A stretch of 30,000 bases of DNA, taken from positions 3,049,621 to 3,079,620 of the forward strand of contig CP128857.1 in assembly GCA_030388725.1 (NCBI GenBank), given 5' to 3'. The notes below the pieces were generated by a model. The model was not told the DNA's origin and made no database searches. It saw only the letters and a program-made list of their open reading frames with translations. Positions 28,218 through 28,790 of this stretch are shown piece by piece. The first letter of the stretch is position 1. Every line of letters starts with the position of its first letter. Both the position numbers and the translations under genes were made by a program. This stretch comes from Prodigiosinella aquatilis. GTDB lineage: Bacteria; Pseudomonadota; Gammaproteobacteria; Enterobacterales; Enterobacteriaceae.

Positions 28218-28790
28218 ATGGCAAAGTATTACACGGCTGATTCTGCAAATGGCTTACGCCCGTTTTGCGAGATTATTCAGGGAAACTACGAACCTAAAAA
28301 GCAAGAGCTGGCAACTTTCCTCACTCAGATGTACCCAGATGGGCTGTCAAAGCATGGCCACAATTACCTTTATAATCCCGGTCCGCTTATGGATGAAAAG
28401 AACGGTGATGGTCAGGCATTATTAATTGGCCTGGTATTTGAGCTGGTTCGCCGTAGCCATTTCCCGGAGAAACCATCCCGCTACCAGTCGTTATTTGCCT
28501 GTCAGCACATCAGCGAAGTTAAAGAATTCAGAGAGCAGCTGGCTGATGAGCGTGAGGAAGACGAGATCAGAACTGCACCTATCTATGAAGTATTCACCGA
28601 CGAGGCTGTTCATTGTGGCGATATGAGGTTGCTAAGTGATGATTGCCCGGTGCTTGAATTGTATCGCCGGGCATACCTTTACTGGTCTGGAGAACCTGCC
28701 CCAGTCAGGGAAGGTAAGGAAGAAGAAAAGCCGTTCTGGGAACTGCTGATTCCTCTGCCTATATTGATTGGTCGTCAGATATCGGAGTGA
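28218..28790 (+). CDS. Unknown-function protein D (190 aa); possibly DUF2441-like
   Basis: The start is taken at 28218 (MAKYYTADSANGL...). The in-frame upstream extension from 28071 lies in sequence homologous to the non-coding region U2 and is Arg-rich nonsense. Notable stretches are GLSKHGHNYLY and LVFELVRRSHFPEKPSRYQSLFAC. The DUF2441 resemblance is from memory only. Confidence 0.6.
   Translation: MAKYYTADSANGLRPFCEIIQGNYEPKKQELATFLTQMYPDGLSKHGHNYLYNPGPLMDEKNGDGQALLIGLVFELVRRSHFPEKPSRYQSLFACQHISEVKEFREQLADEREEDEIRTAPIYEVFTDEAVHCGDMRLLSDDCPVLELYRRAYLYWSGEPAPVREGKEEEKPFWELLIPLPILIGRQISE

Follow-up and report, generated by a model that had tools for sequence, protein, structure and literature searches.

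Small ADP-ribosyltransferase (ART) effectors that are mobile, directed against phages and paired with a dedicated neutraliser have been described as DarT of DarT-DarG and CmdT of CmdTAC (PMC11618068). The same logic is proposed here for two convergent genes, D and S2, in a 30,000-nucleotide stretch of Prodigiosinella aquatilis DNA (contig CP128857.1, forward-strand positions 3,049,621 to 3,079,620; referred to as the window and numbered from its first letter), which carries a BcepMu-like transposable prophage. D encodes a 190-aa protein of the DUF2441 family and S2 an 85-aa member of a family named S. DarTG and CmdTAC are co-transcribed, whereas D and S are convergent, and S is neither a macrodomain nor a chaperone-dependent antitoxin. 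No Pfam or PADLOC match to DarT (DUF4433) or CmdT was obtained for D, whose only Pfam match is DUF2441; S had no Pfam match, and NCBIfam and PADLOC scans of D, S1 (a second S gene in the window) and S2 returned zero matches. By this comparison D-S would resemble the ART-toxin/antitoxin defence modules DarTG and CmdTAC most closely, as a member of neither.

BstA-aba (PMC8585504) is alike in concept, a prophage cargo defence gene being combined with an element that spares the prophage's own lytic cycle, and the orientation of S fits such an arrangement. The aba element is, however, a stretch of DNA within bstA, and S a protein-coding gene of its own; the two are related in neither sequence nor fold, and a defence role for D is only proposed. 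AcrIF11 and its Aca regulator (PMC12421852) likewise combine a small phage-borne ART with a small accompanying gene, but acr-aca pairs are operons and Aca is a helix-turn-helix (HTH) repressor, whereas S has no HTH and is convergent. No similarity between D and AcrIF11 was detectable in the searches run.

The operon layout of type II toxin-antitoxin (TA) systems was not observed, D and S being encoded on opposite strands in the window and in 46/46 paired loci. Type I TA systems with convergent, 3'-overlapping transcripts include TxpA/RatA and BsrG/SR4 of Bacillus prophages. D-S shares with these the tail-to-tail order, the lack of a terminator between the genes and the prophage location, and the 3' ends of its transcripts should therefore be complementary. 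In those loci a small membrane peptide is the toxin and its antitoxin is a non-coding RNA, whereas S is a conserved protein with 92 protein homologues and D is soluble and 190 aa long, so that only the 3' geometry is alike.

A tail-to-tail unit in at least four temperate-phage slots

D-S is a conserved, mobile, tail-to-tail unit that occupies at least four distinct accessory slots of temperate phages. The features of the pair in the window are:

28218-28790, forward strand: gene D, ATG-initiated open reading frame (ORF), 190 aa, DUF2441/BC2332-like; proposed effector of the module
28791-28805, no strand: D-S2 stop-codon spacer, 15 nt of sequence without a terminator
28806-29063, reverse strand: gene S2, ORF for an 85-aa S-family member, convergent with D; proposed cognate partner (antidote or regulator)
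26920-27195, reverse strand: gene S1, an 'orphan' S copy downstream of the methyltransferase gene Dam and in the same orientation, with no adjacent D

The initial annotation had described D as a 190-aa protein containing GLSKHGHNYLY, GLVFELVRRSHFPEKPSRYQSLFACQHISEVKEF and ADEREEDEIR, had placed its stop 15 bp from the opposite-strand stop of S2 with no room for a terminator between them, and had noted a resemblance to DUF2441. The ORF and its sequence agree with the first point. The interval 28791-28805 agrees with the second, as the terminator scan predicted no intrinsic terminator within the gap or near it, and RNA folding of 28750-28850 was no better than shuffled sequence on either strand (z +0.93 and +0.53). 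The third held as well, the family being recovered by Pfam: PF10386 (DUF2441) matched D residues 70-158 with 28.1 bits (E 2.4e-6) against a gathering score of 25. Sites reported by a combined sigma-70 and terminator scan were not above those of shuffled sequence, with no credible promoter for D or S2, and Rfam gave no family match over 26800-29400.

A longer, TTG-initiated ORF from 28071 is not supported as the start of D because 21 homologues begin at the 28218 ATG. When compared with relatives, D had a dN/dS of 0.06-0.12 (strong purifying selection) and S of 0.22-0.33 (0.22-0.28 for S2; purifying selection); the D and S2 ORFs are genuine genes under purifying selection. D is identical to a protein already in the public databases, WP_290179670.1 of Prodigiosinella aquatilis, which is named 'DUF2441 domain-containing protein'. 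The S2 protein is public as 'hypothetical protein', and the accession numbers of D and S2 are consecutive in many genomes.

Loci were retrieved with the closer D alignment, giving a sample biased towards Enterobacterales and Pseudomonas, and the fetched loci were scanned with D-family and S-family hidden Markov models. An opposite-strand S gene lay immediately 3' of D in 39 of the 53 D-seeded loci. The pair was tail-to-tail in the window and in every one of the 46 paired loci, with stop-to-stop distances of -107, -89, -80, -77, -11, -10, -7, +4, +8 and +20 nt (+15 in the window), the stops never being more than 20 nt apart. The reciprocal look-up from five divergent S proteins, of Pseudomonas (77 aa), Salmonella (78 aa), Yersinia (68 aa), Proteus (85 aa) and Serratia (66 aa), led to an adjoining DUF2441 gene in 5/5 cases. 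To the earlier question whether homologues of D always neighbour an S-like gene, these 39 D-seeded and five S-seeded loci largely give the answer yes, with exceptions in which D is intact and S is missing. Pairing extends to Citrobacter NCU1 (D 42% identical), Klebsiella sp. WOUb02 (35%) and Sodalis (40%) (L018-L020), in which the S-family ORF overlaps the end of D by 7-11 nt.

Slot 1, in BcepMu-like prophages, lies between Dam and the holin gene, with D on the Dam side and the opposing S on the holin side. Slot 2, in the Arsenophonus, Pantoea and symbiont Mu-like prophages, has D next to host envZ and facing S; Mor, GemA, MuB and the transposase lie beyond S and share its orientation. In lambdoid prophages (slot 3) Q and S read towards an opposing D, with the holin beyond; the Yersinia pair is located by Imm_superinfect, the Serratia pair by HicAB, and Klebsiella has this arrangement too. 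In Pseudomonas lambdoid prophages (slot 4) a leftward cro is followed by rightward cI and DUF1654, then by a rightward S that meets a leftward D, and finally by a leftward putAbiC. The Pseudomonas S is 66% identical to the S of KP12; the module has therefore passed between phages of very different kinds. S is co-oriented in slots 2-4 with the lytic regulators beside it (Mor, Q, the PL side of cI), and both D and its neighbours Imm_superinfect and AbiC point against them.

S genes without D were found in two Escherichia coli prophages (L003 and L004), as S1 after Dam in the window, and as a second copy in L013. In three further loci S is intact and D is disrupted, by an insertion (L016) or by frameshifts (L017 and L020).

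A profile search of 5.8 billion proteins gave 92 S-family members of 66-110 aa, all annotated 'hypothetical'. The family has no Pfam domain, and Pfam and PHROGs gave no match for S; its conserved core reads ...F.G(I/L)....K(T/I)(Y/F).L.V.....(E/D)A(I/L)..(L/M)..A(L/I)..(L/I).... The AlphaFold2 (AF2) monomer model of S2, built from 60 sequences, was poor (pLDDT 55.7), too poor for a meaningful fold comparison, and residues 37-53 formed its one helix; such a model fits folding on a partner or as an oligomer and does not prove it. A resemblance of S to HicB/UPF0150 or to a ribbon-helix-helix protein was considered and dropped.

More distant DUF2441 genes, carried by phages of Gordonia and Streptococcus and by plasmids of Rhodococcus, are located in lysogeny or accessory regions, often facing a small convergent ORF. 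On Rhodococcus jostii RHA1 plasmid pRHL2 (L069, 3001-3822) an 86-aa convergent ORF lies 3' of the DUF2441 gene with a 36-nt gap, and in Streptococcus phage Javan642 (L026, 4001-4781) a convergent ORF of 59-81 aa overlaps the DUF2441 gene by 26 nt. The S profile gave no match to the small ORFs beside DUF2441 genes in Rhodococcus, Gordonia and Streptococcus, and judging from these sequences an S-like partner beyond Proteobacteria is not established. In L018 (451-984, reverse strand; Citrobacter NCU1) and L019 (5025-5570, reverse strand; Klebsiella sp.), the two most divergent proteobacterial D-S loci, an ORF of ~180 aa is divergent from D. The two ORFs have similar N-terminal sequences and may be an extra component in that subgroup.

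Fold and conserved residues of D

A structure for DUF2441 was solved in 2005, and the family has long been predicted to be an ART toxin. An AF2 model of D was obtained with a pLDDT of 86 and a pTM of 0.80. It was matched by Foldseek to PDB entry 2AUA (BC2332 of Bacillus cereus) with E 6e-8, probability 1.00 and TM 0.57, and 2AUA was also the one solved structure matched by the D-family profile (E 4e-16), in an alignment covering the E..R, PSR, aromatic-x10-aromatic, D, YW.G and E.L motifs. BC2332 and D are alike in that the Pfam threshold is met and both profile and Foldseek matches are obtained; they differ in that identity is ~20%, TM is 0.57 and the Pfam match covers only residues 70-158 of D, and BC2332 lacks the H46-G47 motif in the alignment with D. 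In a viral structure library D matched uncharacterised proteins of Gordonia phage JuJu and of one other phage (TM 0.76-0.87). Full-length D matched phrog_5663 (function unknown) in PHROGs at 3e-58.

SCOP places 2AUA/BC2332 in family d.166.1.6 of the ADP-ribosylation superfamily (PMC3000352). With ProFunc, an active-site template match of BC2332 to diphtheria toxin was rated 'certain', with weaker matches to ExoA and cholix toxin (PMC3024214), and DUF2441 is listed in the Pfam ART clan (PMC7955679). D is a member of DUF2441 and through that family, by its predicted fold, a putative member of the ART superfamily and a predicted enzyme. Membership gives D a fold and not a mechanism, because BC2332 itself has no known function, and any ART activity of D would be inferred from the fold level. 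The Pfam DUF2441 model matched 76/76 members of a wider D-family alignment. When the same 76 were scanned against the other ART-clan families, one sub-threshold match was returned (Arr-ms, E 0.08).

An exhaustive profile search gave 1377 DUF2441-family cluster representatives (50% identity clusters, E <=1e-3), almost all of them stand-alone single-domain proteins of ~165-200 aa. They occur in temperate phages of Proteobacteria, Actinobacteria and Firmicutes, and on plasmids too. Conservation was computed over 149 representatives, ~30% identical to D. In D numbering, R78, R88, Y155 and W156 were 100% conserved, E75 and E175 99%, G47 99%, S87 96%, F93 and F104 92% each, H46 90% and D135 85% (the remainder N). 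All near-invariant residues are retained in D. In the AF2 model F93 and F104 are exactly 11 residues apart, on a strand and then a helix, and E175 is at the start of a strand. The H-Y-E residues are H21, Y54, Y65 and E148 in diphtheria toxin and H862, Y896, Y907 and E988 in PARP1.

Among the top 150 representatives there is a single multidomain architecture, that of P0168, a metagenomic representative of 572 aa with an N-terminal CHAT caspase-like protease (Pfam 1.7e-28) and a C-terminal DUF2441.

Insertion site and duplicated intergenic block

The prophage genes and intergenic elements around the pair are:

17641-18057, reverse strand: Mor, Mor-family activator
18027-18491, reverse strand: GemA
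20944-22110, reverse strand: MuB-like AAA protein
22121-23914, reverse strand: rve transposase
25781-26191, forward strand: CI-type repressor
26225-26821, forward strand: cargo ORF of 198 aa, phrog_12025 (function unknown), no Pfam match
27208-27972, reverse strand: Dam-type N6-adenine DNA methyltransferase (Pfam MethyltransfD12 2e-27; phrog_56), conserved left flank of the slot
28060-28166, forward strand: block copy 1, directly upstream of D; hairpin and U-tract, ~33-nt spacer, motif CTATTAATGCGGTTTAA (28149-28165)
29083-29187, forward strand: block copy 2, in the S2-holin interval; degenerate hairpin, motif CTATTAACGCTGTTTAA (29170-29186), running into the holin 5' leader
29243-29593, forward strand: holin, first gene of the lysis/late cluster (Pfam Holin_2-3 9e-41; phrog_1528), conserved right flank
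from 29597, forward strand: SLT lysin, which also follows the holin in relatives

In two E. coli prophages, L003 and L004 (GON1437 and AF22), the Dam-holin slot is empty and the order is S-Dam-holin. It holds an unrelated 182-aa protein in L022 (E. coli S12), three unrelated genes in L023 (SK1144), and D with an S gene in KP12, E. coli 730V1 and many others. For other cargo genes from the same slots, only marginal matches were returned by Pfam and PADLOC. L004 corresponds to the window backbone without the insert: its Dam is 99% identical to that of the window, and its flanks are 93% (left) and 87% (right) identical. The D-S2 pair in the window is an insertion of ~1 kb into the Dam-holin intergenic region. 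That region is single in L004 and 247 bp long; its left 144 bp correspond to window positions 27973-28116 (89%) and its right 158 bp to 29083-29239 (87%).

A 57-bp segment of hairpin and U-tract, single in L004, occurs twice in the window (28060-28116 and 29083-29138, 79% identical). The copy-1 hairpin (28073-28115) consists of a 17-bp GC-rich stem followed by GUUCUUUC, with a dG of -35.5 kcal/mol and z -3.96; the copy-2 hairpin has decayed and was not significant when folded against shuffled sequence. The hairpin at 28073-28115 is kept in the Dam-holin intergenic region of all BcepMu-like relatives (L003, ~4123-4160, and L004 among them). It looks like an intrinsic terminator for rightward transcription from the repressor/cargo side, or an operator dyad; a consensus terminator scan did not report it. 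The motif CTATTAAYGCNGTTTAA follows each hairpin copy at ~33 nt, with two occurrences in 30 kb against 0.05 expected. The block of hairpin, spacer and CTATTAAYGCNGTTTAA precedes the holin gene in every relative. D has its own copy and is probably under lysis-type control in this backbone, as far as the sequence indicates. The block upstream of D was rejected as part of the mobile module, being absent upstream of D in Arsenophonus, Pantoea and Limnobaculum; from this distribution the duplicated block is taken to be a property of the BcepMu-like backbone and not of the D-S module.

Two other elements were noted in the intergenic sequence. An inverted repeat, GTCTCC-N10-GGAGAC (29216-29237), kept in every aligned relative, would sequester the holin ribosome-binding site AAGGAG (29230-29235) and may control translation of the lysis cassette. 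A perfect 12-bp palindrome, GTCTCGCGAGAC (28020-28045), in the Dam-proximal part of the region is kept in L003, L004, KP12 and L002 and is a candidate operator.

The 198-aa cargo ORF, which lies directly downstream of the repressor, contains a hydrophobic segment rich in glycine and carries a hydrophobic tail at its C-terminus. Its position is taken in relatives by a 312-aa putative lipoprotein (L003), an HSDR_N-domain protein (L006-8) or a 175-aa protein (L022); since relatives hold different cargo there, the position is regarded as a second cargo hotspot. In the region ~16000-17600 the prophage apparently has its left end, just beyond Mor; an AT-rich stretch (GC 0.35) and a 104-aa LysR-type HTH ORF of truncated appearance (17170-17481) adjoin it, and an MFS transporter gene lies at 15213-16481.

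Proposed roles of the pair

The reading that we prefer, at about even odds, takes D as an ART-type effector, with S as its cognate restraining partner, in a conflict role. D and S2 would then make up a two-gene conflict module that is mobile and travels as cargo in temperate phages. D would be an NAD+-using ART-type enzyme that modifies a protein or nucleic-acid target and harms a competing phage or the infected cell. S would restrain it as a protein antidote that folds on binding, and/or at the level of the transcript, where S transcription, meeting no terminator, would run into the 3' end of D and silence it by interference or through an antisense duplex; this last idea is suggested by the conserved architecture of the pair. 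The orientations in slots 2-4 suggest that D acts from the prophage, being made like bor or the neighbouring exclusion genes, and that S is made when the resident phage goes lytic and so confers self-immunity. Orphan S copies such as S1 would be antidote-only genes.

The invariant or near-invariant polar residues (E75, R78, R88, D135, E175 and H46) together with the low dN/dS of D argue for a conserved active or binding site, and the pattern of decay, in which D is lost while S is kept and orphan S copies occur, was counted for the module as toxin/antidote-like; the poor S2 model and the CHAT-DUF2441 fusion were placed on the same side. An effector or toxin-like component, as the initial annotation had suggested, is plausible for D on its DUF2441/BC2332 ART-fold classification and its place in a prophage cargo hotspot; on the anti-defence factor suggested there as well, the evidence is neutral. 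A fuller version of the effector-partner reading is prophage defence or exclusion with S-mediated self-immunity. D made by the lysogen would ADP-ribosylate a protein or nucleic acid and block or abort superinfecting phages, S, wired into the lytic operons and overlapping D convergently, would switch D off at both the RNA and the protein level, and orphan S genes such as S1 would act as counter-defence, letting D-less relatives infect D-lysogens. We hold this fuller version tentatively, as somewhat improbable.

A number of results weigh against an ART effector restrained by S. Apart from 2AUA, the recurring PDB matches of D were the ART subunits of cholera, pertussis and LT toxins, each non-significant (Foldseek E 0.9-8). 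When the D-family profile was compared by hhalign with diphtheria toxin, cholera toxin A1 and pertussis S1 no alignment was obtained, and a sequence-level link between the D family and the classic ARTs is therefore not demonstrable by this comparison. The residues H46-G47, F93/F104 and E175 of D look like an H-Y-E-type site, a candidate catalytic assignment that is inferred from the motif spacing of diphtheria toxin and PARP. The enterobacterial D clade has changed two family-conserved residues (R9 to S, E71 to G). No defence-system model of PADLOC-DB v2 matched D, S2 or S1, nor the Sk-type S, at E <=0.1, and no experimental work on any DUF2441 protein was found in the literature searched. Intact D without a recognisable S is present in Limnobaculum L005 and in L055 and L059-61, so D is not obligatorily lethal without S. 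In the Salmonella prophages L006-8 the S position is held by an unrelated 98-aa P-loop-like ORF (6627-6923, reverse strand) with a Walker-A-like GPTGSGKS and weak AAA_19 and RecD-like matches; it is not matched by the S profile and may be either a gene fragment or a partner that has replaced S. No tight co-evolution of D and S is apparent: their alleles recombine, S2 differing from the S of L014 by a dS of 0.27 while the matching D genes are saturated. Many of the loci are closely related, and their counts overstate the number of independent observations; the stronger argument is the number of distinct contexts. Finally, D in the window reads in the direction of the late genes and is preceded by a copy of the holin-proximal block, an arrangement that fits lytic better than prophage expression.

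This last point belongs to an alternative that we consider unlikely, in which D is a lytic-cycle host-takeover or anti-defence enzyme made with the lysis/late genes and ADP-ribosylating a host protein, comparable to T4 Alt, ModA and ModB or to the anti-CRISPR ART AcrIF11, and S is an earlier off-regulator or an unrelated neighbour. The co-orientation of D with the holin/late cluster holds in all BcepMu-like relatives as well as in the window, D has the hairpin-spacer-CTATTAAYGCNGTTTAA block of its own, the phage encodes a Mor-family activator, and phage ARTs with anti-defence roles exist, AcrIF11 being an example (PMC12421852). The promoter role of the duplicated block is, however, only putative, and in the lambdoid prophages of Yersinia, Serratia, Klebsiella and Pseudomonas the Q-dependent late operon or the PL-side operon runs antisense to D, which shares its orientation with Imm_superinfect and putAbiC. 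Lambda genes in a D-like orientation, such as bor, are expressed from the lysogen. D and S are, moreover, essentially absent from isolated virulent phage genomes; among the isolated phage genomes searched for S homologues, a search that bears on the counter-defence idea, only the KP12 Mu-like contig has one. The earlier suggestion that D is expressed late accordingly remains plausible for this phage, where the holin-preceding block is copied, and does not carry over to the lambdoid prophages.

We regard it as quite unlikely that D-S is an addiction-type TA pair whose sole role is to stabilise the prophage or cargo segment. Such a role would suit a two-gene unit that is mobile between contexts, that decays by loss of D with retention of S, that leaves orphan S copies and that has other TA pairs nearby (HicAB in L067; in L070, VapBC in the vicinity of a distant homologue). 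The pair is, however, convergent and not an autoregulated operon in 46/46 loci, intact D is found without S, and the slots are classic moron, exclusion or Abi positions; addiction and defence can also coexist. A simple toxin-antitoxin interpretation is weakened by the same absence of an operon, by intact D without S and by the lysis-like wiring of D in the window. Very unlikely, in our estimate, is a D that is a non-enzymatic structural or regulatory relic of the ART fold, with S adjacent as part of a segment co-inherited among recombining temperate phages and with the tight spacing due to genome compaction. ART-fold proteins without catalysis and ART-like families with divergent motifs do exist (PMC7955679), no match of D to a true ART reaches significance, R9 and E71 of the family are missing from the D clade, D and S alleles reassort, and phage genes are in general tightly packed. 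Set against these are the near-invariant polar residues over ~150 representatives at ~30% identity, the dN/dS of 0.06-0.12, the success of all reciprocal look-ups from S to D, and the fact that the pair has survived at least four independent relocations, and persists at D identities as low as 35%, amid changing surroundings.

Gene D itself is already annotated; the D-S module and its architecture appear to be undescribed in the literature searched. To the DUF2441 domain the present analysis adds a dedicated conserved partner gene, a conserved and unusual tail-to-tail layout and cargo slots beside superinfection-immunity, AbiC and HicAB genes, by which the domain becomes a testable two-gene hypothesis. 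If the effector-partner reading is true, D-S would represent a new family of ART effectors in phage conflict biology, in a module controlled partly by its convergent layout and not by an operon. The prophage-defence version would, if true, provide a first function for a family of more than 1300 sequence clusters. The window phage, with a paired S2 and an orphan S1, is a convenient natural test case for antidote function. S1 and S2 are 84% identical in amino acid sequence; S2 is nearer to the S genes of L014 and L015 (dS 0.25-0.27) than to S1 within its own phage (dS 0.71). The S1 and S2 genes contain a direct repeat of 203 nt with 88% identity, the copies lying within 1.9 kb of each other (26954-27156 and 28822-29024); recombination between them would remove Dam and D.

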